Positions 7,631 through 43,041 of a DNA stretch of 43,041 bases are shown piece by piece (the first letter of the stretch is position 1; each line of letters begins with the position of its first letter). The notes under the pieces were generated by a model. That model searched no databases and was not told the DNA's origin. It saw only the letters and a list, made by a program, of their open reading frames with translations. The stretch lies in assembly GCA_026180655.1 (NCBI GenBank), contig GCA_026180655.1_4341.1, one strand, 5' to 3'. The stretch is from a phage. A program made the position numbers and the translations under genes.

Positions 7631-7665
7631 CTTGCACACCCCAATATAATAGCGTACTATTCACT
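7631..7665 (+). promoter_or_regulatory. Conserved promoter-like element, class A copy 1 (CTTGCACACCCC-AATATAATAG-CGTA-CTATTCA)
   Basis: TATAAT at 7645-7650 overlapping palindrome AATAG-N4-CTATT (7648-7661); near-identical copies at 16310, 27219 (rc) and 28441 (rc); gene start 27 nt downstream. Confidence 0.45.
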
Positions 7666-7691
7666 TACACCAACAATGAAGGGGTTTTAAA

Positions 7692-7883
7692 ATGTCCAGT
7701 TTACCAATTTCCTTAATCCTGTTTGCACTGCTCGTGTACTTTGCGCCTTTTTTAGTTGCCTACTTCCGCAACCATAAAGCAAAGCTGGCGATATTCATGG
7801 CTAACTTATTTCTCGGATGGGTTCTGTTGCCGTGGGTATTCATTTTAATCTGGGCTTGCAACTCGAACGTGAAAGAGAAGTAA
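7692..7883 (+). CDS. Small two-TM membrane protein, superinfection-immunity (Imm)-like
   Basis: 63 aa, two hydrophobic helices, motif FRNHKAKLAIFMANLFLGWVLLPWVFILIWA recalled as typical of Imm-type superinfection immunity proteins; GAAGGGG RBS; opposite strand to flanking tail genes. Confidence 0.45.
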   Translation: MSSLPISLILFALLVYFAPFLVAYFRNHKAKLAIFMANLFLGWVLLPWVFILIWACNSNVKEK

Positions 7884-7921
7884 GCTACTATAAGACAAAT
7901 CCTAAACACGAGGAAGTAAGC

Positions 7922-9052
7922 ATGGCCCGGAAGAAAATAACCGACGAGCAGTTACAGGAAGAATTGAACGCCGGAACAAAGATTATCGACATATCCCGTA
8001 AATACGGCATCTCAGACCGCGTAATTCGTATCCGTAAAGCGAAGCTAGCTAAAAAAGGTGTAGGCCACGGGCGCGACGTTAGCCACCTTGTCCCGGACGG
8101 CTACAAGATTAAAGGAACGTCGTCACTGGTGGACGAGTTCGGCAACACTAAACTGCAATGGGTTAAGACCGACACCGACGCCGAACGCCAGGTAGAGTTG
8201 ATGAAAGCCGTAATCGAGGGCATGAAGTCAGAGATTACGCCAGTTGCGCCTGTTAAAGCCACCCGCACCAAACGTGACGATAAACTACTCAATCTTTACA
8301 CGGTATCTGATTTACATCTCGGTATGCTGGCCTGGGCCGACGAGAGCGGCGACGACTGGGATATGAAGATTGCGGAAGACCTGTTTTCTCGATGGTTCGA
8401 CGCAGCGTTTCAGAAAGCACCGGATGCAGGAACAGGAGTCATTAACCTGCTAGGCGACTTCGCACACTTCGATAGTCTTGATGCCGTTACCCCTGAGTCG
8501 CGTCATGTGTTGGACGCAGACACGCGCTATCAGAAACTTGTACGCTACATGATTCGTATGGTCCGCCGTGTTGTAGATATGGCGCTGGTTAAACATAAAA
8601 CCGTTCGCTTGCTTATTGTGCAAGGGAACCACGACGAAAGCGGAATGATTTGGTTGGCTGAGATGTTCAGTACGCTGTATGATAACGAGCCGCGTGTGTT
8701 CGTCGATACGTCGCCGGACGTTTACAAGATGGTACGGCACGGCAAAACGACGCTGTTCTTCCATCACGGGCATAAAGCACGATTCGACGCTATCGAACCG
8801 GTTATGATTGCCAAGTTCCGCAAAGCGTTTGGTGAGAGCGTTTACAGCTACGCCCACGTAGGCCACCTGCACCATCAGAAGATTGTAGAAAGCCGTAATA
8901 TGATTGTTGAGCAACACCGCACCTTAGCGGCGAAAGACGCCTACGCCTCTCGCGGTGGATGGATGTCGGGCCGGAGTGCAAATGTAATTACTTATAGCGC
9001 CGAATATGGTGAGGTCGCACGTTTAACTATTTCACCGGAGATGCTGGGATGA
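7922..9052 (+). CDS. Calcineurin-like metallophosphoesterase with N-terminal HTH domain
   Basis: Motifs D-x-H (VSDLHLG), GD-x-x-D (LGDFAHFD), GNH[DE] (QGNHDE), HHGH and GHLHH; N-terminal 60 aa HTH-like (IIDISRKYGISDRVIRIRKAKL); GAGGAAG RBS before ATG 7922. Confidence 0.65.
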   Translation: MARKKITDEQLQEELNAGTKIIDISRKYGISDRVIRIRKAKLAKKGVGHGRDVSHLVPDGYKIKGTSSLVDEFGNTKLQWVKTDTDAERQVELMKAVIEGMKSEITPVAPVKATRTKRDDKLLNLYTVSDLHLGMLAWADESGDDWDMKIAEDLFSRWFDAAFQKAPDAGTGVINLLGDFAHFDSLDAVTPESRHVLDADTRYQKLVRYMIRMVRRVVDMALVKHKTVRLLIVQGNHDESGMIWLAEMFSTLYDNEPRVFVDTSPDVYKMVRHGKTTLFFHHGHKARFDAIEPVMIAKFRKAFGESVYSYAHVGHLHHQKIVESRNMIVEQHRTLAAKDAYASRGGWMSGRSANVITYSAEYGEVARLTISPEMLG

Positions 9053-9279
9053 CTTCAAAATACAACCGCACAATGACAAATACTCACGGCAGCACAATGG
9101 CAGTAGATGTTTATGATGTGCTCCGCGCCTTTGATATACGCGACCCAGCACTACAGCACGCATTGAAGAAGCTATTGTGCATGGGGTTGCGCGGGCACAA
9201 AGATACAGGAACCGACTTAGCGGAAGCAATTGAAAGTCTGGAGAAGTTACGGGAGTATCGAAGCAATATTGACGAGTAA
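9049..9279 (+). CDS. Hypothetical protein (76 aa), translationally coupled to the phosphoesterase gene
   Basis: ATGA start/stop overlap with 7922..9052; followed by a terminator. Confidence 0.35.
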   Translation: MTSKYNRTMTNTHGSTMAVDVYDVLRAFDIRDPALQHALKKLLCMGLRGHKDTGTDLAEAIESLEKLREYRSNIDE

Positions 9280-9280
9280 G

Positions 9281-9310
9281 AAAAAAGGCCCCGAAAGGGG
9301 CCTTAGTTTT
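9281..9310. terminator. Bidirectional rho-independent terminator
   Basis: AAGGCCCC-GAAA-GGGGCCTT hairpin flanked by A-run on one side and T-run on the other; sits between convergent genes. Confidence 0.6.
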
Positions 9311-15990: not shown

Positions 15991-16309
15991 GTTTCTCCTT
16001 TCTCGATAAGTAAAGCCCCGCCTTAAAGCGGGGCGCTAGTCCTTATCATTTAAACACAGAAACGGCGTAATCTCAGTAAACCAGTTACTTTTTACACAAG
16101 CAATAGAGTATGGCCCTTCCTAACGCGTCAGCGTAACTACACTCATGACTTACGTCCCGCTCCGTTACCTGCCCGCGCCGCGGTCGCTTGTTCATACTTC
16201 ACAAGCTCAGGTGGAGCTTAGCATATTTTCAGTGAAAAGTCAACTATTCGAATAGTTTATTCCAACATTTACAATTTAGTGGAATAACTGGAATACATAA
16301 CCAAATAGT

Positions 16310-16345
16310 TTGCGCACCCCAATATAATAGGGTACTATTCAGTTA
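16310..16345 (+). promoter_or_regulatory. Conserved promoter-like element, class A copy 2 (TTGCGCACCCC-AATATAATAG-GGTA-CTATTCA)
   Basis: TATAAT 16323-16328; palindrome AATAG-N4-CTATT at 16326-16339; gene start 28 nt downstream. Confidence 0.45.
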
Positions 16346-16372
16346 TTGAAACGAGAGATAAGGAACTTAAAG

Positions 16373-16585
16373 ATGAAAGAATTAATTATCGCGGTATTGA
16401 TGACATTGGCAGTTTCACTGGTAATCGCTGCTGTGGTACGTAGCTTAGATAAACACGGGTGCGAGAACTACGGAGATATCACAGGCCGAGAGGTAATGTA
16501 TAGTTACACAACTTGTTATGTAAAAACTGATAGGGGGTTTATCCCCCGTGAAGAACTTAATTTTAGAGCAGCGACACATGAATAA
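16373..16585 (+). CDS. Small membrane-anchored protein (moron), unknown function
   Basis: ATG 16373 with AAGGA RBS; N-terminal TM helix (LIIAVLMTLAVSLVIAAVV), 4 Cys in extracytoplasmic part; own promoter-like element and terminator; opposite strand to capsid module. Confidence 0.4.
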   Translation: MKELIIAVLMTLAVSLVIAAVVRSLDKHGCENYGDITGREVMYSYTTCYVKTDRGFIPREELNFRAATHE

Positions 16586-16587
16586 AA

Positions 16588-16613
16588 CTAAGGCCCCGTA
16601 AGGGGCCTTTTAT
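16588..16613. terminator. Bidirectional rho-independent terminator
   Basis: AAGGCCCC-GTAA-GGGGCCTT hairpin with flanking T/A runs. Confidence 0.55.
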
Positions 16614-23823: not shown

Positions 23824-23905
23824 CTTCTCTACTCCGTTCTCGTTGTCGATGAAGTAAATATAGTAGGGTCGTAGGTAATAGTCAACTAGTCATTGCAGAA
23901 AATAG

Positions 23906-26864: not shown

Positions 26865-27059
26865 CTACTCTGATGCCCGAAAGTGATAGGCAACTCTTCC
26901 CCCCCCCGACATCCCGAACTCAGTATCTGTTGGTTTATCCCGCCACCCCTGAATAAAACCGAAACGGTCACGGGTTATATACCGGTAGTTGTTAGGGAGT
27001 GGCAACTCCAGCCCCTCAAAATCAACGGTCACGGTGTAGCTTCTAAAATTCATAGTCAA
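26865..27059 (-). CDS. Hypothetical protein whose frame is joined to a second ORF by a G9 tract
   Basis: ATG at 27053; GGG codons span the homopolymer; downstream ORF 26780..26971 is in the frame reached by a 1-nt length change. Confidence 0.3.
   Translation of the reverse strand: MTMNFRSYTVTVDFEGLELPLPNNYRYITRDRFGFIQGWRDKPTDTEFGMSGGGRVAYHFRASE
26899..26907. repeat. Homopolymeric C9/G9 tract
   Basis: ttCCCCCCCCCgac on plus strand; lies inside overlapping ORFs 26865..27059 and 26780..26971. Confidence 0.9.
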
Positions 27060-27192
27060 TTACCCCGAACTCGTTAATGATTTGAGCCTTGTAGAAGTTG
27101 CCGTTTGAGGCCAGGTGATACGCCTGCACCATAGTCATCTCGCGATAGGTTGCTGCACTGTTTTCGAATTCCATAATCATCAAAGTAACCAT
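27043..27192 (-). CDS. Small hypothetical protein (49 aa)
   Basis: ATG 27192, 27 nt downstream of class A element copy 3; below ORF-track cutoff. Confidence 0.25.
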   Translation of the reverse strand: MVTLMIMEFENSAATYREMTMVQAYHLASNGNFYKAQIINEFGVIDYEF

Positions 27193-27218
27193 CTTCCGTC
27201 TCTCCTCTCGTCTGTGTA

Positions 27219-27254
27219 AATGAATAGTATCCTATTCTATCCCAGCGTGCAAGT
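27219..27254 (-). promoter_or_regulatory. Conserved promoter-like element, class A copy 3 (minus orientation)
   Basis: Reverse complement reads CTTGCACGCTGGGATAGAATAGGATACTATTCA; palindrome AATAG-TATC-CTATT at 27223-27236. Confidence 0.4.
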
Positions 27255-27554
27255 AAATTTTATTGGTGTTTTAGAGATAATTGCTCACTGCGAATCCAGT
27301 AGTATCTCGGACGTCTGGCCCACTGCCGCCAACGCATAACACGGTACTTGTTGCCGTCTGACTCAACAATAAGCCCGAATCGCTTTTCTCCGTTTCTACC
27401 GGTCCAGGTTACGATGTCGTTCAGTTTCGTTGTTGCATCTCCTGCAATAGTCGCTTCGATTGTTGCGTTTGGTGAAATAGAACAAAAATGAGAAAAATGA
27501 TACGCTGCTGTGTAGCAGCGTAAGTCACTCAGTAAAATCCCAAACTATTGAACA

Positions 27555-28422: not shown

Positions 28423-28440
28423 TCCTCTGTCTCGTTTCGA

Positions 28441-28478
28441 TAAGTGAATAGTATCCTATTATGTTGGGGTGTGCAAGA
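28441..28478 (-). promoter_or_regulatory. Conserved promoter-like element, class A copy 4 (minus orientation)
   Basis: Reverse complement reads CTTGCACACCCCAACATAATAGGATACTATTCAC; palindrome AATAG-TATC-CTATT at 28447-28460. Confidence 0.45.
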
Positions 28479-28908
28479 GAATAGTTACGTTGCCGTTGTG
28501 ATTCTTCAGGTAGGGTTGTGCCTTTATTCTTATTACTTGGTAACTAAAGGGCAGGCCTTAAGCCTGCCCAATAATCGTTACATTTTTACGGTTGCGAATC
28601 TACGGCACATTAAGAAAATCAGATACTTAAGAGATGTGCTGCCGATGAGAATAGAGCTTGCCCAGGGCAACCTGAGATACTTAGGAAGGAAAGTTACGAT
28701 AATTCTCGTGTTCAGTAAGCCTGCTGCTTAACCCTTTGCTTAACGCACGGGTTAAGCATTCTTACAAGGTGAACAAGAATCAAAGTAACTAAGATATAGA
28801 AGCACCTTAAACGAAGATTTTCATAATGTCAATAGGTGCGATTATGTTTGATTTCCCATTATTCGCAATGTATACTTGGTTTCGTTAACTGATAGTGAGG
28901 GTTTGAGA

Positions 28909-29079
28909 ATGACACAGAATGAGGTAGCTGAGCGTATCGGGGTTACTCGTCGCACGCTCAATAACTGGTTAAAGAGTGGGAAGTTCCCGGATTGTTGTAT
29001 CCGCATTATGGGTCGCCGTCAGCCGGGTACGTTTGACCCGGAGAAAGTGGAAGCGTGGATTAAGGAGAACGTGAAATGA
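28909..29079 (+). CDS. Small HTH DNA-binding protein (excisionase/AlpA-like fold), first gene of rightward operon
   Basis: ATG 28909 after TGAGGG RBS; NEVAERIGVTRRTLNNWLKSGKFP helix-turn-helix. Confidence 0.45.
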   Translation: MTQNEVAERIGVTRRTLNNWLKSGKFPDCCIRIMGRRQPGTFDPEKVEAWIKENVK

Positions 29080-29309
29080 CCGAGTTTCAGTCACGCGTAT
29101 TTACGGCAGTCGTTTCGTTAACACGTAAAAAAGGGTCGTGCAGCGTTATCGACTTGCGCCGTAGTTATTTTAGGTACTATAGTTCAGCCATTATTGAGGG
29201 GTCGTTGAAGGTGTTGGTTAAATCCGGTGTTGTGAAAAATGTTGGCGGGGGATATAGCGCCGTTGCCGAAGTTCGCGGAATGACAGCTACTTTAGAAGAC
29301 CTGGAATAA
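29076..29309 (+). CDS. Hypothetical protein
   Basis: 77-aa ORF, ATGA-coupled to upstream HTH gene. Confidence 0.3.
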   Translation: MTEFQSRVFTAVVSLTRKKGSCSVIDLRRSYFRYYSSAIIEGSLKVLVKSGVVKNVGGGYSAVAEVRGMTATLEDLE

Positions 29310-29326
29310 AAGAAAGCCCCGACGCG

Positions 29327-31609
29327 GTGAACGCCGAGGCCAAATTACTTGCTGAAGGAATATACAATATGTCCGATGTAATTTTATCCTACTCGTGGTC
29401 TCGTCGCAACGCGCGAGCAGAGAAAAAGGATATAAACGTCAGAACCACACACACGGCAACACTGGACGACCTGAAAGAGTTAATCCAGCCGCTCGATGCC
29501 GTTCGTGACGGAATTAACCCGAAGACCGCGCCCGGCTATATCACAGCCGCGTGTGATTCTACACACAGCACCGTAAAAGACCCGGAAACCGGGGACTTTA
29601 AGCAAGCGCGTAAAGGCTTCTTTTATCGCTGTGATGCGTCTGTAAGCAAATCGTCACTTGCGTATCTGGACTTCGACAGCGCAACACCGGAAGAGTATCA
29701 GGAGGCTGTGCGCCTGGTTAAGCGCAGCCGCCTGGCGATGTGTCTCTACACCACGGCATCGCATACTGATGAGTCACCGCGCTTTCGCGTCGTCATGCCT
29801 CTGGGACGCCCGGTCGAAGGTGGCGACATCATCCGTGTTCGTCATGGATTGCTCGAGCACTTCTTCAAAGGCATGGGCGCTGACCGCAGCGGGTTTACTC
29901 TTTCACAACCGATGTACCTGCCGCCGGTTGACTCCCAGGTTATCTGGTCAAGACGCAATGACCTGATTGACCCTGGCGAGTTACTGGAGGGTATACCGGA
30001 TTACGAGGTGAGCAGCGCATCGGATTACCAGATACCGGAAGAACTGCGCACCGCGTTCACTGATGCGTTCGAAGCACTGGCGTTCGAGTACGGCGGTATC
30101 ATGACGCCGCGCGGCCTTAAGATGCCAGCCACACCAGAACACGCTGAAAACTACAGCGACCCGACTCCACGCCCGGATGACTTCCTGTTGTGCTTCCCGC
30201 GAGAGGGATACGAAGCGCCTAACGTAACCATGATTCACGACACTGACATCACGGCAACAGAGGGCATGTCGCCAAAAGAGGTGTGGAAATATGCGTGTGA
30301 TGCGACCGGGCTGCCGTTCAGTGAAGTCGCCGAGGCTATCGGGTGGGGTTCGCGTGAATCTGTTTCATGCAGCCTTGATGACCTGGAAGACGACGAGGAC
30401 TCAGAGGAGGACGAGTTACCAGAACCGGTAAAGGCTGATTTCGTCGTCGAAGGGTACATGCCGTCGGATTGTATCTGGGACATCGTCGGTGAGTCAGGCA
30501 CGTACAAGTCCTTCTATACGCTGGGGATGATGTACCTGGGCGCCGCCGGGTACCGGTTTGCGGGGGCGGATACACAGCGCTGCCACCATTTCTATATCGA
30601 CGGTGAGGGTGGTGCAGCTACACGCACACGTATCGACGCACTCGCGGCTAAATATGGCGAGGAAGGTAAAGATTATGTACATGTCATCGACATGGGTGAA
30701 GTCGGCAAACTGAAAAACCTGATTAAGTTGATGCGTGAAACTGCTGGCGACGAGCCTATTGGCATGGTTGCCTTCGACACTCTCAACCAGACGCTGGCTC
30801 TGACGATTGATAAGTTCGACGAGAACAGTTCATCGACGGCGATCGGCATGGGTAAAGTTATCGCCATCCTGAAAGAAGTACGCGACGCGACTAAAGCCGC
30901 GGTAGGCGTTGTTCACCATACGCCGAAGGGTGGAAAGAAGGCCCGTGGCAGCGGGGCGCTGTATGCAGGTGTAGACGTGGAGCTGACAATTGAACGAGCA
31001 ACCGACCGCCAGATAAACGTATACCACTCTAAATTCAAGCACGGGCCCCAACAGAAGACGGTTGGTATGGTGCTGGAGTCGGTACAGTTCCGGGAAGCGC
31101 CACCACCGAAAGAGTACCGCGCGGTTGAGTTCCTGAGCAGCACAGAGGAATACGGCACAATCGTTAACCTCGACCTGCCGGAGCCACACAAGGCGCTTGT
31201 GCTGATGCCGTGGGGCTTCGAGCCATTCAAAACTGACGAGGAGAAAGAGCGGGAAGAAGGGCTGACAAAGGAAGGTAAAGAAAACGTAAAGAATGCTGTA
31301 AAACGCGGGAAGGATGAAGGGCGTAATGAATCAATACTCGCCGCGCTGGAAGACCTGCAACAGTCCGACGACACCGGACGAGGTTTTACCCAACGGCAGA
31401 TAGTAGCGAACTCAGGCGACCACGCCATCACCAACCACCATCTTGAGAAGATGCTGAAAGACGGTGAGTTGATGCTTGGATGTGATGTTAACGGTGAAGT
31501 TATACCTGGTACCTACCGGATACCGGAAAAGATGGGTGACAGATTAAGACCGAAGACAATATACGAACAGAATGAAATGCTGATAGTGACAGAGGAAGAT
31601 TTGGAATAG
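29327..31609 (+). CDS. Putative DNA primase/helicase (RecA-like NTPase domain with N-terminal primase-like region)
   Basis: 760 aa; Walker A GESGTYKS in central domain, acidic linker, position at head of replication module. Confidence 0.45.
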   Translation: MNAEAKLLAEGIYNMSDVILSYSWSRRNARAEKKDINVRTTHTATLDDLKELIQPLDAVRDGINPKTAPGYITAACDSTHSTVKDPETGDFKQARKGFFYRCDASVSKSSLAYLDFDSATPEEYQEAVRLVKRSRLAMCLYTTASHTDESPRFRVVMPLGRPVEGGDIIRVRHGLLEHFFKGMGADRSGFTLSQPMYLPPVDSQVIWSRRNDLIDPGELLEGIPDYEVSSASDYQIPEELRTAFTDAFEALAFEYGGIMTPRGLKMPATPEHAENYSDPTPRPDDFLLCFPREGYEAPNVTMIHDTDITATEGMSPKEVWKYACDATGLPFSEVAEAIGWGSRESVSCSLDDLEDDEDSEEDELPEPVKADFVVEGYMPSDCIWDIVGESGTYKSFYTLGMMYLGAAGYRFAGADTQRCHHFYIDGEGGAATRTRIDALAAKYGEEGKDYVHVIDMGEVGKLKNLIKLMRETAGDEPIGMVAFDTLNQTLALTIDKFDENSSSTAIGMGKVIAILKEVRDATKAAVGVVHHTPKGGKKARGSGALYAGVDVELTIERATDRQINVYHSKFKHGPQQKTVGMVLESVQFREAPPPKEYRAVEFLSSTEEYGTIVNLDLPEPHKALVLMPWGFEPFKTDEEKEREEGLTKEGKENVKNAVKRGKDEGRNESILAALEDLQQSDDTGRGFTQRQIVANSGDHAITNHHLEKMLKDGELMLGCDVNGEVIPGTYRIPEKMGDRLRPKTIYEQNEMLIVTEEDLE

Positions 31610-31610
31610 A

Positions 31611-31636
31611 TAAAAAGAAAGGGGCGTTAAGCCCCT
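31611..31636 (-). terminator. Terminator hairpin for the minus-strand XRE gene
   Basis: AGGGGC-GTTAA-GCCCCT hairpin; on minus strand followed by TTCTTTTTATC. Confidence 0.45.
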
Positions 31637-31842
31637 TCACCTAACGCCAGCCACTTGGCGTCTACTTGCAGCACTTCCGCCAGTTTAAACAGCGTCGCCG
31701 GGCGGACGTCCTGAGTTACACCCAGTGCAAGCTGGTTAATCGCACCCTGGGAAACGCCAGCCAGGACAGCCAGACGGCGCTGGGAGATGCCGAGTTCTTT
31801 ACGGCGTTGTTCTACACGGATGCCTAGTTCAGATGGTTGCAT
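31627..31842 (-). CDS. XRE-family HTH transcriptional regulator (Cro/CI-like)
   Basis: 71 aa, LGISQRRLAVLAGVSQGAINQLALG helix-turn-helix; AAGGAG RBS; only minus-strand gene inside rightward operon. Confidence 0.75.
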   Translation of the reverse strand: MQPSELGIRVEQRRKELGISQRRLAVLAGVSQGAINQLALGVTQDVRPATLFKLAEVLQVDAKWLALGEGA

Positions 31843-31862
31843 GTCAATTACTCCTTAGTTAG

Positions 31863-31891
31863 TTGATATGTGAATAGTACCATATTAATTA
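31863..31891. promoter_or_regulatory. Operator/promoter element with imperfect palindrome (AATAG-TACC-ATATT)
   Basis: TTGATA at 31863-31868; palindrome 31873-31886; about 30 nt upstream of the XRE gene start on the other strand. Confidence 0.35.
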
Positions 31892-31906
31892 TTTTAGAAA
31901 AGCCCA

Positions 31907-31935
31907 TTGACATGTGAATAGCCCGCTATTATAGT
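31907..31935 (+). promoter_or_regulatory. Sigma70-type promoter, class B (TTGACA-N17-TATAGT) with operator palindrome in spacer
   Basis: TTGACA 31907-31912, TATAGT 31930-31935, palindrome AATAG-CCCG-CTATT 31917-31930; GAGGAGAG RBS and ATG 31967 downstream. Confidence 0.6.
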
Positions 31936-31966
31936 TAGCATATACCAAACGAGAGGAGAGAAACAA

Positions 31967-32479
31967 ATGTTAGACCAATTTTTAAAATTACTGGAACGTT
32001 TCGTAGTTGCACATGAACTGATTGCTGCGAACAGCGCGAAACAATCGACTGGTAAGTCGGTAGGCGAATTAACGGTTGACGTCGCGGTAACTGGGGTAGA
32101 GACAGTTAAAAAAGAACTGGCTAAAGCACTTGAAGAAGTCGAGAAAGCAAAAGAAATCCCGGTTGAAGGTGAAGACGTCGTTGACACTAAACCGGCAGAA
32201 GAAGAGAAGCCGAAACGTAAGCCGCGTAAAGCTAAAGTAGAGGAACCGACGCCAGAGCCGGAAGAAGAAGTCGATTATCAGTCTCTGCGTGACCAGATTC
32301 AGGCTATCGACGATGCAATTAACGAGGGTCCGAGCGATGCCGCGTGCGATGATTCAGATGAACTGCTGGAAGAGTTCACCGGTAGGAAGATGAAGATTGC
32401 AGCGATTAAAGACGAAGACCTGGCTGAATACCTGGAACGCCTGACAGCAATCAAGAACAAGTATTTCGAAGAAGAATAA
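31967..32479 (+). CDS. Highly acidic early protein, unknown function
   Basis: 170 aa, very Glu/Asp-rich with low-complexity PAEEEKPKRKPRKAKVEEPTPEPEEE; first ORF after strong promoter; own terminator. Confidence 0.4.
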   Translation: MLDQFLKLLERFVVAHELIAANSAKQSTGKSVGELTVDVAVTGVETVKKELAKALEEVEKAKEIPVEGEDVVDTKPAEEEKPKRKPRKAKVEEPTPEPEEEVDYQSLRDQIQAIDDAINEGPSDAACDDSDELLEEFTGRKMKIAAIKDEDLAEYLERLTAIKNKYFEEE

Positions 32480-32522: not shown

Positions 32523-32795
32523 ATGATTTATCAACTCTACCGAGCCGTAGACAGGCGGGATAACACAGAGGCGCTATGGCTGTTACGTGCACCGTCCGGT
32601 GCGTATCAGATGGAAGAGATGGCGTACTTAGGAAAAGTACCACGGCCTAAAGATATAGGCCGTCATGTGTCGCAGATTAAGCGCACGACTTTTGCCAAAC
32701 CTGACTTTTATGTCTTCGAGTCGATGTATGGGTGGGCCATGCACTGCGACCATAAGACGCGACATTTAATTGACCAGTGGGAGAACAGGGTATGA
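32523..32795 (+). CDS. Hypothetical protein
   Basis: 90-aa ORF. Confidence 0.3.
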   Translation: MIYQLYRAVDRRDNTEALWLLRAPSGAYQMEEMAYLGKVPRPKDIGRHVSQIKRTTFAKPDFYVFESMYGWAMHCDHKTRHLIDQWENRV

Positions 32796-33286
32796 ATTGG
32801 CACGAACTGTTCGACTATGACCCGGATACAGGTAAGTTGTTTTGGAAGATAAGCCCTTCGGATAAGGTAAAGGTAGGCCAAGAGGCGGGGTCGAATGATG
32901 TTCACGGCTATAAACAGGTACAAGTGTTAGGTAAGGTCCATAAAGTGCACCGTGTTATATGGGAACTTTGTAATACTAATGATGTTTTAAGTAGCAGCGA
33001 CCAGATTGACCATATAGACCATGACAGAAGGGATAATCGCATATCTAATCTTCGTAAAGTTGACAGTCTAGGCAACCGGCGTAATTCTGGAATGTCGTCG
33101 CTAAATACGTCAGGTGTAACCGGAGTTTCATGGTGCCGTAGGCGCGGTAGATGGCGGGCAAGTATAAAAATAAACAAGGTATCGAAGCATTTAGGATACT
33201 TCGACAGCTTCGACGATGCGGTAAACGTTAGAAAGAAAGCAGAAGAGATTTACGGGTTCCACAAAAATCATGGGGTTAAAAGATGA
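32792..33286 (+). CDS. HNH homing endonuclease with AP2-like DNA-binding domain (copy 1)
   Basis: ATGA overlap with upstream gene; MNWHELFDYDPDTGKLFW, His/Asn-containing HNH core (HRVIW...DHIDHDRRDNRISNL), C-terminal AP2-like GVTGVSWCRRRGRWRASI; paralog at 41034. Confidence 0.6.
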   Translation: MNWHELFDYDPDTGKLFWKISPSDKVKVGQEAGSNDVHGYKQVQVLGKVHKVHRVIWELCNTNDVLSSSDQIDHIDHDRRDNRISNLRKVDSLGNRRNSGMSSLNTSGVTGVSWCRRRGRWRASIKINKVSKHLGYFDSFDDAVNVRKKAEEIYGFHKNHGVKR

Positions 33287-34570: not shown

Positions 34571-34599
34571 TTGACACCTGAATAGTTAGCTATTATAGT
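34571..34599 (+). promoter_or_regulatory. Sigma70-type promoter, class B (TTGACA-N17-TATAGT) with operator palindrome
   Basis: TTGACA 34571-34576, TATAGT 34594-34599, perfect palindrome AATAG-TTAG-CTATT 34581-34594. Confidence 0.6.
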
Positions 34600-35316: not shown

Positions 35317-35341
35317 AAGGCCCTTCATTGGGCCTTTTTAC
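35317..35341 (+). terminator. Rho-independent terminator
   Basis: AGGCCC-TTCATT-GGGCCT hairpin followed by TTTTTA. Confidence 0.5.
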
Positions 35342-38176: not shown

Positions 38177-38457
38177 CCCCGGAAGGCAAGATTCAGAAAT
38201 ACGCAAAAGACCGATTCGAGGCCATTGGTGGCCTCGTTCGTAAACTTTCCTACGAAGGACGTTCCGGTGCTCCTGACCTGCTGGTAATTCTCCCCGGCGG
38301 CATCGTCTGGTTTGTCGAGGTGAAGAAAGACGAAAACACGAAGCCAGACCCACACCAGCTACGTGAGCATGAGCGTATGCGCAAACGTGGCGCGAATGTT
38401 TTTGTCGTCGGGTCGTTCAAACAGGTTGACGATCTAATAGCGAACTATTATAGTTAG
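38173..38457 (+). CDS. VRR-NUC domain nuclease
   Basis: GTG start overlapping upstream stop; GAPDLLVILPGGIVWFVEVKKDENTKPDPHQ matches the VRR-NUC PD-(D/E)XK core. Confidence 0.55.
   Translation: MTPEGKIQKYAKDRFEAIGGLVRKLSYEGRSGAPDLLVILPGGIVWFVEVKKDENTKPDPHQLREHERMRKRGANVFVVGSFKQVDDLIANYYS
38426..38454 (+). promoter_or_regulatory. Sigma70-type promoter, class B (TTGACG-N17-TATAGT) with operator palindrome
   Basis: TTGACG 38426-38431, TATAGT 38449-38454, palindrome AATAG-CGAA-CTATT 38436-38449; lies within 3' end of VRR-NUC gene. Confidence 0.5.
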
Positions 38458-39620: not shown

Positions 39621-41037
39621 GTTTCAAAGGCGCGAGTACCAGAAACTCATGACTTCGTTCATGTTGCAACATCATCGATGCAACATATGGGCAAGCATGG
39701 GTGCCGGGAAGACTGGCAGCGTACTGTGGACATTAAACCGACTGTTCCGCAACGGCCAACTTACGGACGACGACCGGGTATTAATCCTCGCCCCGTTGCG
39801 CGTTGCGTCTGGTACGTGGCCAGCAGAACAAGAGAAATGGCAATTCCCATGCCTGAGTGTTGTGGACGCGACGGGTTCGGAGAAACGCCGTATTGCGGCG
39901 CTGGAGTCGGACGCTAACGTTGTGTGCACTAACTACGAGGTAATCGAGTGGCTGATTGACTACTACGGCAAAGACGACTGGCCTTTTACCGTTATTGTTG
40001 CCGATGAAAGCACGAAGCTGAAATCATTCCGCAGCCGTTCGGGCGGCAGTAAGAGGGCGAAGGCGCTTAGCAAAGTGGCGTTAGGTAAGGTAAAGCGTTT
40101 TATAAACCTGACAGGTACTCCATCCCCTAACGGACTCAAAGACCTGTGGGGTCAGAACTGGTTTATTGATGCGGGCGAGCGCCTCGGTTCTTCATATACG
40201 GCGTTCACTGACCGCTGGTTTAACTCGGTACAGAAAGGCAAATCCGCGATGGTGCGTGAGTACCATGCACGCCCGGGCGCAGATACTGAGATTCATCAGA
40301 AGATGAAAGACATTAGTCTCACGATTGACGCCGCCGAGTGGTTCGGTTGTGAAGCGCCGATTATTGTACCGGTTGAAATCGACCTGCCGAAGAAAGCTCG
40401 TCAGGCGTACATCGATATGGAGGAGAAGTTATTCGCCGAACTGGAGAGCGGAGAAGTTGAGGCGGCTAACGCGGCAGCGAAGACGTCGAAGTGTTTGCAG
40501 ATTGCATCCGGTGCTGTATATGTGTCAGGGCCAGACGGCGAAGCAACGAAAGACTGGGAGAAAGTGCACGACACGAAACTGGACGCGCTGGAGTCCATTG
40601 TTGAGGAGTTACAGGGTGCGCCGTTACTGGTCGCCTATCAGTTCAAGCACGAACTGGAACGCATACTGAAACGTTTCCCGCAGGCACAGGCGTTTGCCAA
40701 AGGCGCTAAGGGTAATAAGCAGATGGAAGCGTGGAACCGTGGTGAAATCGAGATTTTGTGCGTCCACCCCGCGTCAGCCGGTCATGGTTTGAATTTACAG
40801 GACGGCGGACACCATCTGGCGTTCATCTCGCAAGGCTGGAACCTTGAGCACTATTTGCAGGTTGTTGAGCGTATAGGTCCAACGCGTCAAAAGCAATCGG
40901 GGTATAATCGCCCTGTTTTTATCTACAAGATTATTGCTAAAGATACGTTAGATGAGGTAGTTGCTGCTCGTACCGACGAGAAAAAGCAAGTACAAGACAT
41001 ATTACTAGAGTACATGAAGCGCAGAGGTAAAAAATGA
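39613..41037 (+). CDS. SNF2-family helicase
   Basis: Walker A GAGKTG, DExx box ADESTKLK, LTGTP motif, C-terminal helicase motifs (HPASAGHGLNLQ). Confidence 0.7.
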   Translation: MSKFQRREYQKLMTSFMLQHHRCNIWASMGAGKTGSVLWTLNRLFRNGQLTDDDRVLILAPLRVASGTWPAEQEKWQFPCLSVVDATGSEKRRIAALESDANVVCTNYEVIEWLIDYYGKDDWPFTVIVADESTKLKSFRSRSGGSKRAKALSKVALGKVKRFINLTGTPSPNGLKDLWGQNWFIDAGERLGSSYTAFTDRWFNSVQKGKSAMVREYHARPGADTEIHQKMKDISLTIDAAEWFGCEAPIIVPVEIDLPKKARQAYIDMEEKLFAELESGEVEAANAAAKTSKCLQIASGAVYVSGPDGEATKDWEKVHDTKLDALESIVEELQGAPLLVAYQFKHELERILKRFPQAQAFAKGAKGNKQMEAWNRGEIEILCVHPASAGHGLNLQDGGHHLAFISQGWNLEHYLQVVERIGPTRQKQSGYNRPVFIYKIIAKDTLDEVVAARTDEKKQVQDILLEYMKRRGKK

Positions 41038-41531
41038 CCTATTGGAATGAGCTTTTTAATTATGACCCCAATACCGGAGTACTATCGTGGAAAAAGTGGC
41101 GTAGGGGTGCAAAAAGAAGTTTAGTAGCGGGTACAAAGGAACGTGATGGGTACGTGCGCGTAAAACATAAAAACAAGCATATCCCTGTTCACAGAATAAT
41201 TTGGGACATGTGCCACCCTAATGACGTTCTGACACCTGGATTTGAGATAGACCATATAAATCACATACGGGATGACAATAGAATACTAAACTTGAGAAAA
41301 GTAGTTAAGATTGATAACAACCGCAACACGACAAGAAACAAGGCTAATACTTCTGGGGTTGTAGGCGTACATTTTAACCGTTCCAGGGGTAAATGGGTCG
41401 CCGTTATCTACGACAATCGTAAGCTAGTTTTCTTGGGGCACTTCTCTGATTTCAAAGACGCTGTTGCCGTCAGGAAAGCAGCGGAAATAAAATATAATTA
41501 CCACGAAAACCACGGATCAGAAAAACCATGA
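41034..41531 (+). CDS. HNH homing endonuclease with AP2-like domain (copy 2)
   Basis: ATGA overlap with SNF2 gene; MTYWNELFNYDPNTGVLSW, HRIIW...DHINHIRDDNRILNL, AP2-like GVVGVHFNRSRGKWVAVI; paralog of 32792..33286. Confidence 0.6.
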   Translation: MTYWNELFNYDPNTGVLSWKKWRRGAKRSLVAGTKERDGYVRVKHKNKHIPVHRIIWDMCHPNDVLTPGFEIDHINHIRDDNRILNLRKVVKIDNNRNTTRNKANTSGVVGVHFNRSRGKWVAVIYDNRKLVFLGHFSDFKDAVAVRKAAEIKYNYHENHGSEKP

Positions 41532-41668: not shown

Positions 41669-41696
41669 AAAGGCCCCGTTTGGGGCCTTAGTTTTA
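41669..41696. terminator. Bidirectional rho-independent terminator between convergent operons
   Basis: AGGCCCC-GTTT-GGGGCCT hairpin with flanking A- and T-runs. Confidence 0.6.
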
Positions 41697-43041
41697 GCTA
41701 GGAATGGCGTTAAACCCGCTATCAGCTATCTGGTATGTGATACTGCCGGTTATCGAACTCGTATCAGTTAAGTCTGTGTTAGTAGCGATAACCGTAGCTG
41801 TTGCTGCCATTCTGCGCAATGGAATAGAGTTGTCAGCAGCTACTACTGAACCAAGTACAAAGGGGCCGTTAACCATACCCGACCAAGACGTAAGAATGCC
41901 GCCAGTTAACGCTGGAATGTTTTTAGGCAGGTTACCGATTGTTACGTTGCCAGTAAGCGCCCCTTTACTCGATAGTGACAGTGTGAAGTTAACCGTAATC
42001 GTGTTGCCATTCTTCGACCATGTACCGGAGCGCGCGGCATATGTAATACCAACGGTACTACCGCCGATTAACAGCATCGGGTTGAACGCCTGGCGTTCAT
42101 ATTCGTACTCCACCACCGGAGTGTCAGCAGTGACGCCAGCGGTAAGAATGGCACGGTTGCCGCCGTTCAGCCACACGACAACTTTACTTGTCGAACCAGG
42201 CGCAATGTGGATGACAGGTATATTCCGTGCAGCGCGAACCTGAGCGGATTTAATCTCTACAAGACTGCCGTTTCCGTATACGTATAAATCCGGGTTGGTG
42301 TACGCCACGCCGTTGTTCGTGAACAGACGGTCAATGATGATGTTGTTATTATCGCCTACCGTAATAAGCGGGCCTGTATACGACTCGCCGCCATTAGCAC
42401 TGCCTGGAGATAAAGGGCTAATCTGAAAGTTATTAAGCGTGATTTTGTTACCAGAATCGAAGGTGATAGCACCGCCTTCGTTCGCGCCGAGGTTAAGGAA
42501 GTATCCAGGACCTTCGGTTGCGCAACTGTTAAGCGTCAGCGCCACACAATTCTTGAAGTAGAACGCACCACGGCGCGGGCGGTCTGAGCAGCAGCTATCG
42601 AAAACCGAATAATTAAGATTTTCTATATGGAACGCACCAAGTACATCAGTATGTCCGCGCGCCCATACGTTATCGTAATGTGTGCTGGTGCCATTTGACT
42701 GCTGAACGGCACCAGAGAAATGACATCGAATCAAGTTTGATAGGTAGACATCGCCAAGTCGCACCCCAAATTTGGTATTAAACACCTGGACGTTTTCAAA
42801 AATGAAACCTCCACCAGTAAGAACCTCTATTCCTACCTCATTTTGTGTTGGACTTGTCCCCTTAAACGCCGCGTCGCGGATGACAACCGCTCTGCCGAAA
42901 ATCTCGTTCGTACCGATAGTTCCTAGCGAATCGGTATTCACGTAAGCAATCGCGTCTGTGGTTACGGTTTGCACGGGATTGTTAGGGTTGGTGATGGTTA
43001 CCTGTGCGTTATTACTCTTAGAGAAATACCCACGGCCCAGC
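41694..43041 (-). CDS. Tailspike/tail fibre protein, beta-helix-like C-terminal part (5' end beyond window)
   Basis: Minus-strand frame open from window end (no stop upstream of the GTG used by the ORF track); repetitive Gly/Asn/Thr/Val-rich beta-strand-like sequence typical of tailspikes; convergent on replication operon. Confidence 0.5.
   Translation of the reverse strand, partial: LGRGYFSKSNNAQVTITNPNNPVQTVTTDAIAYVNTDSLGTIGTNEIFGRAVVIRDAAFKGTSPTQNEVGIEVLTGGGFIFENVQVFNTKFGVRLGDVYLSNLIRCHFSGAVQQSNGTSTHYDNVWARGHTDVLGAFHIENLNYSVFDSCCSDRPRRGAFYFKNCVALTLNSCATEGPGYFLNLGANEGGAITFDSGNKITLNNFQISPLSPGSANGGESYTGPLITVGDNNNIIIDRLFTNNGVAYTNPDLYVYGNGSLVEIKSAQVRAARNIPVIHIAPGSTSKVVVWLNGGNRAILTAGVTADTPVVEYEYERQAFNPMLLIGGSTVGITYAARSGTWSKNGNTITVNFTLSLSSKGALTGNVTIGNLPKNIPALTGGILTSWSGMVNGPFVLGSVVAADNSIPLRRMAATATVIATNTDLTDTSSITGSITYQIADSGFNAIPS

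Follow-up and report, generated by a model that had tools for sequence, protein, structure and literature searches.

Why should a phage genome with no recognizable integrase encode a repressor-type protein, on the strand opposite to its early operon? The question is raised by positions 31,611–31,966 of a 43,041-nt phage contig (GCA_026180655.1_4341.1 of assembly GCA_026180655.1; the whole stretch is referred to here as the window), which encodes a small protein of the XRE type. A previous sequence-only reading of this locus saw a Cro/CI-style autoregulated switch and regarded the missing integrase as a puzzle. We consider there to be a somewhat better than even chance that the protein is instead a stand-alone dimeric repressor, similar to 434 Cro, in an obligately lytic siphovirus, one that would damp most phage promoters and regulate its own synthesis. 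The narrower claim, that it represses the divergent promoter P_R and autoregulates, appears fairly probable. The features of the locus are as follows.

31627–31842, minus strand: XRE/434-Cro-like regulator gene, a 71-amino-acid (aa) open reading frame (ORF) matching Pfam HTH_3.
31851–31856, minus strand: Shine-Dalgarno sequence AAGGAG (CTCCTT on the plus strand), read from the sequence 8 nt before the ATG.
31608–31638, minus strand: predicted intrinsic terminator of the XRE transcript, a hairpin (31618–31638) and U-tract, from a terminator scan and folding.
31873–31886: O1, imperfect dyad AATAGTACCATATT (AATAG-TACC-ATATT) with one mismatch, overlapping either a TACTAT −10 or the XRE 5′ leader.
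31891–31918, minus strand: candidate XRE promoter TTCACA-16-TAAAAT (10/12 in the promoter scan), back-to-back with P_R.
31907–31935, plus strand: P_R, TTGACA-17-TATAGT (11/12 in the promoter scan), for the replication/recombination operon starting at 31967.
31917–31930: O2, perfect dyad AATAGCCCGCTATT (AATAG-CCCG-CTATT), in the spacer of P_R.
31967–32479, plus strand: first gene of the divergent operon, encoding an acidic protein of 170 aa (phrog_3127, no Pfam match).

The assignment to the XRE helix-turn-helix (HTH) family stands: HTH_3 is matched over residues 5–68 of the 71 with an E value of 1.2e-12 and 48.1 bits, against a curated cutoff of 23. The nearest sequence in the PDB is 434 Cro, which also has 71 residues (E value 1.8e-6), followed by the DNA-binding domain of the 434 repressor, HipB and P22 C2. 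The AlphaFold2 model was built from the single sequence and is therefore of moderate confidence; it has five helices and a predicted local distance difference test score (pLDDT) of 85, and its top Foldseek match is 2cro, with a template modeling (TM) score of 0.70–0.76. The model describes a single-domain protein of the Cro type, with a five-helix fold of ~70 aa. No C-terminal S24 peptidase, oligomerization or dimerization domain of the kind that marks CI-type (LexA-like) repressors was found in it, and it is therefore classed as Cro-type, not CI-type. A 218-aa S24-type relative was found in another phage.

Identity and synteny with the type members K1G, K1H and K1ind place the window in Kagunavirus (Guernseyvirinae). 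A 2-kb query around the XRE locus matches 445 phage records, with Kagunavirus at the top; the best nucleotide matches are BCH953P1 (92.5%) and K1ind1 (92.3% over 90% of the query), and several hundred Jerseyviruses follow at 80–90%. By tblastn, 546 phage records, spread over three genera, contain the XRE gene, at 94–100% identity within Kagunavirus, ~50% in Jerseyvirus and ~40% in Cornellvirus; DicA of Rac and 434 Cro are among the remoter matches. Hundreds of records annotate the gene, mostly as an XRE regulator or repressor and also as "DicA" or "hypothetical". Conservation was measured in a set of 37 Kagunavirus genomes, from IMG/VR plus the window. The ORF is intact in all 37, which hold 35 distinct nucleotide sequences and 14 protein variants; the ratio of nonsynonymous to synonymous polymorphism (pN/pS) is 0.059, and the 14 variants show a single substitution in the recognition helix. 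An intact ORF and so low a ratio indicate that the gene is functional rather than a relic.

The gene is, as the sequence-only reading had it, the sole minus-strand gene in the rightward early region: every other real gene between 28909 and 41531 lies on the plus strand. Its ribosome-binding site is indeed strong, and AAGGAG is conserved upstream of the XRE genes of Kagunavirus and Jerseyvirus. It also has the terminator of its own that had been proposed. The hairpin is followed by CUUUUUAU, the TAA stop codon lies inside the loop, and the minimum free energy on the minus strand is −15.2 kcal/mol (z = −2.6). On the plus strand, 31618–31638 forms the hairpin and has no U-tract; the terminator is therefore unidirectional and serves only the minus-strand XRE transcript. 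Read-through from the convergent primase-helicase gene would thus not be expected to stop there. At 31605–31650, transcripts of the primase operon may run antisense through the XRE gene, giving convergent transcription. There are two candidate promoters for the XRE start site. The TAAAAT −10 of the first (31891–31918) is conserved in other Kagunaviruses, and its −35 is partly conserved; the alternative −10 is the TACTAT inside O1 (minus strand, 31879 to 31874). For Jersey the case is clear: its XRE promoter is TTGCGT-17-TACTAT and lies across O1.

The two palindrome-bearing elements noted earlier upstream of the gene are real. Positions 31863–31887 and 31907–31931 form a 25-nt direct repeat, 80% identical and 44 bp apart, with one 14-bp dyad in each copy, and the second element coincides with P_R, the promoter of the gene at 31967, as had been recognized. 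Promoters of the P_R architecture also occur in Jerseyvirus, Pantoea phage AH01, Enterobacter phage phiEap-2 and Cornellvirus. Among the 37 Kagunavirus genomes, the O2 half-sites are invariant; the N4 centre between them has seven variants, and the stretch between the P_R −35 and O2 has 10 variants of two lengths. O1 is essentially invariant, including the "defect" ATATT, and varies only at the third base of its centre (C31881). Selection is strong and purifying on the XRE gene and the dyad half-sites alike. O1 is proposed to be a low-affinity autoregulatory operator. The distance from the start of O1 to the start of O2 is 44/45 bp in Kagunavirus (32/33 genomes), 55 bp in Jerseyvirus, and 64–65 bp in AH01 and phiEap-2. 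These steps of ~10 bp, about one helical turn, are suggestive of two dimers on one face of the DNA, although there are only three spacing classes. Downstream of the gene at 31967 lie genes for a 90-aa protein, an HNH-AP2 endonuclease, a DUF2800 nuclease, SSB and PolA. The 170-aa product itself has no HTH in Pfam or PHROG.

O1 and O2 do not form a private operator region; they are two of about ten promoter-embedded dyads in the genome. AATAG-N4-CTATT occurs in the window in seven perfect copies, where 0.04 would be expected, and no other palindrome of the genome comes close to it in enrichment. An extended dyad pattern gives 10 matches against 0.79 expected, and the core AATA-N6-TATT gives eight against 0.7, with G/C at positions 5/10 in seven of the eight sites. 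All copies are found in the context of sigma-70-type promoters. Three of these are rightward replication promoters (dyads at 31917, 34581 and 38436), where the dyad occupies the spacer of TTGAC[A/G]-17-TATAGT; at four more promoters (28447, 27223, 7648 and 16326), it lies across the −10 of TTGCAC-17-TACTAT. The sites away from the XRE locus are as follows.

34581–34594: dyad in TTGACA-17-TATAGT (34571–34599), the SSB/PolA promoter; conserved across Kagunavirus loci.
38436–38449: dyad in a TTGACG...TATAGT promoter, upstream of the small ORFs that come before the Dcm methylase and SNF2 helicase genes.
28447–28460: dyad spanning the −10 of TTGCAC-17-TACTAT, the leftward promoter with which the early-left operon begins; 33 Kagunavirus loci conserve it.
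27223–27236: dyad spanning the −10 of another TTGCAC-17-TACTAT promoter, the second leftward one, ahead of 27043–27192.
7648–7661: dyad across the −10 of a plus-strand moron promoter (TTGCAC at 7632–7637, TACTAT at 7655–7660).
16326–16339: dyad across the −10 of a plus-strand moron promoter that drives the gene of a 70-aa membrane protein (16373–16585).
23877–23890: one-mismatch variant of the dyad, ACTAGTTGACTATT on the minus strand, with its centre at the −35 of TTGACT-17-TATATT.

On the sequence evidence, the dyad-bearing promoters number about ten in total, including the regulator's own, the early-left promoter, the replication promoters and two moron promoters. The promoter of the primase operon (28848–28876) has no dyad. 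The dyads occupy at least two, and probably three, registers relative to the −10, and so they are not a by-product of the −10 hexamer. A likeness to known host sites (ARG box, CRP) was considered and set aside, as the half-sites differ. The variant at 23877, possibly a weak site, belongs to a promoter that precedes small genes, the terminase gene and structural genes; Jersey has an equivalent one-mismatch site at 42338, just upstream of an annotated promoter (42343–42371). A dyad family spread over the genome points to global temporal control rather than to a local bistable switch.

The same family was sought in other members of the subfamily. Counts of AATA-N6-TATT in complete genomes, for each of which 0.4–1.0 are expected from 4-mer frequencies, were as follows.

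Jerseyvirus (Jersey): 5; an AATAG-N4-CTATT dyad at equivalent promoters, as in Kagunavirus.
Pantoea phage AH01: 9; five perfect copies of AATAC-N4-GTATT at equivalent promoters, as well as hybrid forms.
Enterobacter phage phiEap-2: 8; positions 5/10 show no preference.
Serratia phage Tsm2: 2.
Hafnia phage TS33: 2.
Klebsiella phage VLCpiS11a: 0.
Cornellvirus (VSiA, Shemara): 0; a degenerate copy at the local promoter only.

A search for enriched dyads in Cornellvirus, VLCpiS11a and TS33 gave none. The XRE gene is present in all nine genomes compared, and the regulator's own promoter always holds the imperfect copy of the dyad. The 434-type Cro relatives found with the same query have 14-bp promoter operators, ACAA-N6-TTGT and ACAG-N6-CTGT, with the geometry of the Kagunavirus dyads. 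The XRE protein is the only recognizable DNA-binding protein common to all dyad-bearing lineages, and when every ORF of the window was profiled against the eight other genomes, no protein tracked the distribution of the dyad. A one-to-one code between recognition helix and half-site was considered and rejected: across the nine lineages there was no clean match, and only the AATA/TATT core and an invariant Gln are shared. Since some lineages have the regulator and lack the dyad family, the wide regulon would be a lineage-specific expansion, and the ancestral role of the protein may have been purely local.

The order of events that we favor would be as follows. After injection, host RNA polymerase would fire all of the dyad-bearing promoters. 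As the regulator accumulates, it would bind the dyads as a dimer, within the spacer of the replication promoters and across the −10 of the early-left and moron promoters, and would occlude polymerase, turning down early and middle transcription. At higher concentration it would also occupy the imperfect O1 in its own promoter or leader, a form of negative autoregulation, with O1 and O2 probably bound cooperatively on one face of the helix. With no CI antagonist, the circuit would amount to negative feedback, with neither bistability nor lysogeny: the job that Cro has in a lytic cycle, widened from one operator region to a genome-wide regulon. Part of the original switch proposal survives in this scheme. 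The protein is Cro-like, and the dyads overlap both divergent promoters, which makes autoregulation and rightward repression plausible; the CI partner and the bistable pair are absent.

Several observations weigh against this scheme. We connect the protein to the dyad by eliminating other candidates and by reasoning from analogy, and an unrecognized, non-homologous small protein could bind the dyads instead. The variant site at 23877 sits on a presumed late promoter, which fits poorly with a simple early shut-off. An RNA-seq time course of phage K1B4 (PMC12645636) was not used, as its numbering could not be mapped to the XRE gene with confidence; the "early HTH gene" reported there may be a different protein, an HTH_17 protein described below. 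Two further points lend themselves to another explanation, in which the XRE protein acts only locally, autoregulating and repressing the divergent pair, and the distal dyads are bound by an unrecognized phage or host protein or are a promoter feature. First, Cornellvirus (VSiA, Shemara) and VLCpiS11a keep the XRE gene and, apart from a degenerate copy at the local promoter, lack the dyad family. Second, the recognition helices of Kagunavirus (SQGAINQ) and Jerseyvirus (SQSLITH) differ at four of seven positions, and the dyad is identical; we conjecture that the Gln and the AATA core common to both may account for it. A purely local role is possible, but we think it unlikely, given that O1 and O2 belong to the same dyad family, with O2 a perfect copy, that no other ORF has a matching phyletic pattern, that the geometry of the dyad fits the 434 Cro/P22 C2 family, and that the varied registers argue for a separate binder and not for an element of polymerase recognition.

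A bolder form of the regulon scheme would make the protein a genome-wide timer sensitive to copy number. Autoregulation would hold the repressor pool near constant, and replicating, operator-rich DNA would titrate it, thereby setting the whole temporal program. We regard this as decidedly improbable. Were it true, a small lytic phage with neither a polymerase nor a sigma factor of its own would obtain its schedule in this way, and under some conditions the genome could be kept silent; the Kagunavirus "plasmid" from a clinical E. coli isolate, described below, would be an example of such a carrier state without an integrase.

The only other HTH protein is encoded 2.5 kb from the XRE gene.

28909–29079, plus strand: HTH_17 (excisionase/AlpA-like) protein, heading the primase operon (Pfam HTH_17, E value 3e-7).

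This protein could in principle bind the dyads, leaving the XRE protein with some other target. Among the genomes compared it occurs only in Kagunavirus and Jerseyvirus, the two that have the same dyad, with 79% identity between them, and it is absent from the dyad-free Cornellviruses (VSiA, Shemara); moreover, its own promoter is one that has no dyad. However, AH01 (nine AATA-N6-TATT sites) and phiEap-2 (eight) have no homologue, and the weak tblastn match in AH01 falls in an AP2-like protein. Proteins of the HTH_17/Xis type usually bind direct repeats as monomers, not 5-N4-5 dyads, which also counts against the idea. We consider HTH_17 a very unlikely binder.

Whether the locus could sustain lysogeny depends in part on how much of the genome the window represents. 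Its 43,041 bp fall inside the 40.6–45.8 kb span of the complete Kagunavirus genomes among the matched records. Both termini (1–530 and 41694–43041, minus strand) lie inside the tailspike gene: the N-terminal part, which has Tail_spike_N, exits on the minus strand at position 1, and the part that exits at 43041 is the C-terminal one. The two fragments are out of frame across the ends and do not join, so the window is a near-complete linear contig broken in the tailspike gene alone. Circular closure was considered and rejected; a query across the junction matched the tail-fibre gene of a Hafnia phage, but the match stops exactly at the junction (query position 295). The C-terminal part of the tailspike is 90.9% identical to the tail-fibre gene of Hafnia phage yong1, with the match ending precisely at the window end, and this suggests a swapped receptor-binding module. 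Rfam and tRNA scans of the window gave no matches.

Within this near-complete genome, no integrase or recombinase match was found among the ORFs of at least 150 aa, which have structural, replication and lysis assignments, with two in PHROG families of unknown function. The sequence-only reading was thus right that the window has no integrase. It was wrong to see a puzzle in this, as the subfamily lacks integrases throughout and is reported to be lytic. Partition proteins and protelomerases likewise gave no match among ORFs of that size, in a contig broken in the tailspike gene, and all three functions are absent from the annotated complete relatives. There are no two antagonistic repressors at the divergent promoters. 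A 4-kb region around the XRE gene has no match in 5,426 complete E. coli genomes, and no close homologue was found in 185,579 representative bacterial and archaeal genomes (GTDB). Jerseyviruses behave as lytic in a mitomycin C test (PMC8425127), and fBC-Eco01 is reported to have no integrase (PMC9825357); the Kagunavirus family is reported to be strictly lytic. An XRE gene in the absence of an integrase is an ordinary trait of the family and has already been annotated.

One record deserves comment. CP088689.1 is a complete Kagunavirus genome of 44,086 bp, deposited for a clinical E. coli blood isolate as its circular, non-mobilizable "plasmid pC16EC0033-2". The XRE gene of this record is intact, as are the dyads at the XRE-proximal, early-left, replication and moron promoters. 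It is the only Kagunavirus record among 72,556 plasmid records and may reflect a carrier culture or state, or contamination. It could be taken to favor a true lysogeny or pseudolysogeny switch in which the repressor holds a quiescent, non-integrated state, and a repressor-type protein with operators on nearly all of the strong promoters could in principle silence the genome. We give this reading very little credence. It has to contend with the missing integrase, partition genes, protelomerase and S24-type repressor, with the near-complete absence of such genomes from bacterial chromosomes and plasmids, and with the lytic behavior of the Jerseyviruses; furthermore, phage DNA that is permuted by headful packaging assembles into a circle anyway. 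Unlike the immunity regions of temperate phages, the XRE protein and its operators show no diversification into immunity types across the 37 Kagunavirus genomes.

Could the locus be a decaying, functionless remnant of an ancestral immunity region from a temperate phage? The HTH domain has 42–46% identity with Cro proteins of the 434 type and with the N-terminal domain of a CI repressor of the S24 type, and this similarity makes a lambdoid origin of the XRE gene likely. That it has decayed is scarcely credible, given the intact ORF in every Kagunavirus genome of the set, the low pN/pS, the spread over 546 records, and the conservation of ribosome-binding site, promoter, terminator and operators.

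Finally, the dyad has been described before. Seven "phage promoters" found with PHIRE in Escherichia phage fBC-Eco01 (PMC9825357; consensus tgAATAGTa-ccTATTat-T) were attributed to a phage RNA polymerase, and they are the same sequence, in seven copies, in a sister genome. We attach virtually no weight to a phage-encoded polymerase, which the gene content already contradicts: no ORF of at least 150 aa in the window matches an RNA polymerase, these being assigned otherwise or to PHROG families of unknown function, and the motif is a dyad inside sigma-70 −35/−10 promoters, in varied registers and on both strands.

Other features of the window bear on the same promoters and operons. The 7648 dyad belongs to a unit antisense within the tail genes (7632–9279, plus strand), consisting of the dyad promoter, a 63-aa membrane protein (7692–7883), a metallophosphatase and a 76-aa ORF. 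The annotation of CP088689.1 gives a superinfection immunity protein for the small ORF 3′ of the equivalent dyad; this ORF corresponds by position to 7692–7883. The Jersey counterpart of this operon also encodes an Ant-type anti-repressor. A second, self-contained moron (16304–16608, plus strand) is antisense in the head genes and has a dyad promoter, the 70-aa membrane protein and its own terminator; among the eight genomes compared, a homologue of the protein was found in phiEap-2 only. Between the divergent early promoters lies a gene-free gap of ~400 nt (28461–28875) with hairpins at 28549–28569 and 28725–28758. It contains no repeat family and has no Rfam match, and a replication origin or a small RNA is possible there; a repeat search of the gaps at 28423–28908 and 27193–27554 gave nothing convincing. 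The GC-rich hairpin AGGCCCC-N4-GGGGCCT recurs at operon ends (9286–9305, 16591–16610, 35318–35337 and 41671–41690), and this terminator family also occurs in Jersey, AH01 and VSiA.

The primase-helicase segment (28876–31609) is inverted in Kagunavirus and Jerseyvirus relative to other Guernseyvirinae and has its own promoter. The inverted segment has gained the HTH_17 gene and a gene for a 77-aa protein. In AH01, Cornellvirus, phiEap-2, TS33 and Tsm2, the XRE gene is the first gene of the primase operon. Two HNH-AP2 homing-endonuclease genes lie in the replication operons (32777–33286 and 41034–41531, plus strand), and the number and position of HNH endonuclease genes vary among related genomes.

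These phages are of practical interest, as Kagunaviruses and Jerseyviruses are among those most often proposed for E. coli and Salmonella therapy and biocontrol. Some papers list the XRE gene and yet state that the genome has no repressor. Recognition of the protein as a regulator of the lytic cycle would remove a recurring false alarm for a temperate lifestyle in safety screening. If the regulon proposal is correct, it provides a simple account of gene scheduling in a 43-kb phage with host-type promoters only, together with a compact, orthogonal set of repressor and operators for engineering these phages. It would also imply interference between co-infecting phages that share the operator, which bears on the design of cocktails.

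To see the dyads as an operator regulon is new, though only modestly so, and the kind of system is a known one; the literature searched contained no paper that links the dyad motif to the XRE regulator or tests the XRE protein. The closest relatives are 434 Cro (2cro, 3cro) and the DNA-binding domains of the 434 and P22 C2 repressors, with which the protein shares its 71-aa length, its predicted five-helix HTH fold and 39–42% identity. As with 434 and P22 C2, the dyads are 14 bp long, have conserved outer bases and a free centre, and lie inside promoters. The recognition helix (SQGAINQ against KQQSIQL in 434 Cro) and the half-site (AATAG against ACAA) differ. Unlike the 434 system, Kagunavirus is lytic, has neither a CI partner nor an OR1-OR2-OR3 triplet, and has about ten operator promoters instead of two. 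The fBC-Eco01 report concerns the same motif, which is read there as a promoter for a phage polymerase and here as an operator in host-type promoters.

In lytic growth, lambda Cro is a small early repressor that turns down PL and PR and represses its own synthesis. The job proposed for the XRE protein is similar in damping early transcription and in self-repression. Lambda Cro differs in fold, and the XRE gene is transcribed divergently from the operon that its product would repress. In Kagunavirus and Jerseyvirus, the gene is monocistronic with its own terminator; in AH01, Cornellvirus and phiEap-2, its place at the head of the primase operon resembles the cro-O-P arrangement. DicA and other Rac-type repressors share HTH_3, with 42% identity to the dicA-annotated region of Rac, but they maintain cryptic prophages, and the XRE gene has no prophage context. 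The controller (C) proteins of restriction-modification (R-M) systems, C.AhdI, C.BclI and C.Esp1396I, are XRE proteins of similar size and are among the fold matches. They work as concentration-dependent timers by means of two dyads at their own promoter, one strong and one weak. The likeness to C proteins is functional only: no R-M pair adjoins the XRE gene, whose neighbors are the primase-helicase gene and the replication operon, and the sequence and spacing of the dyads differ.

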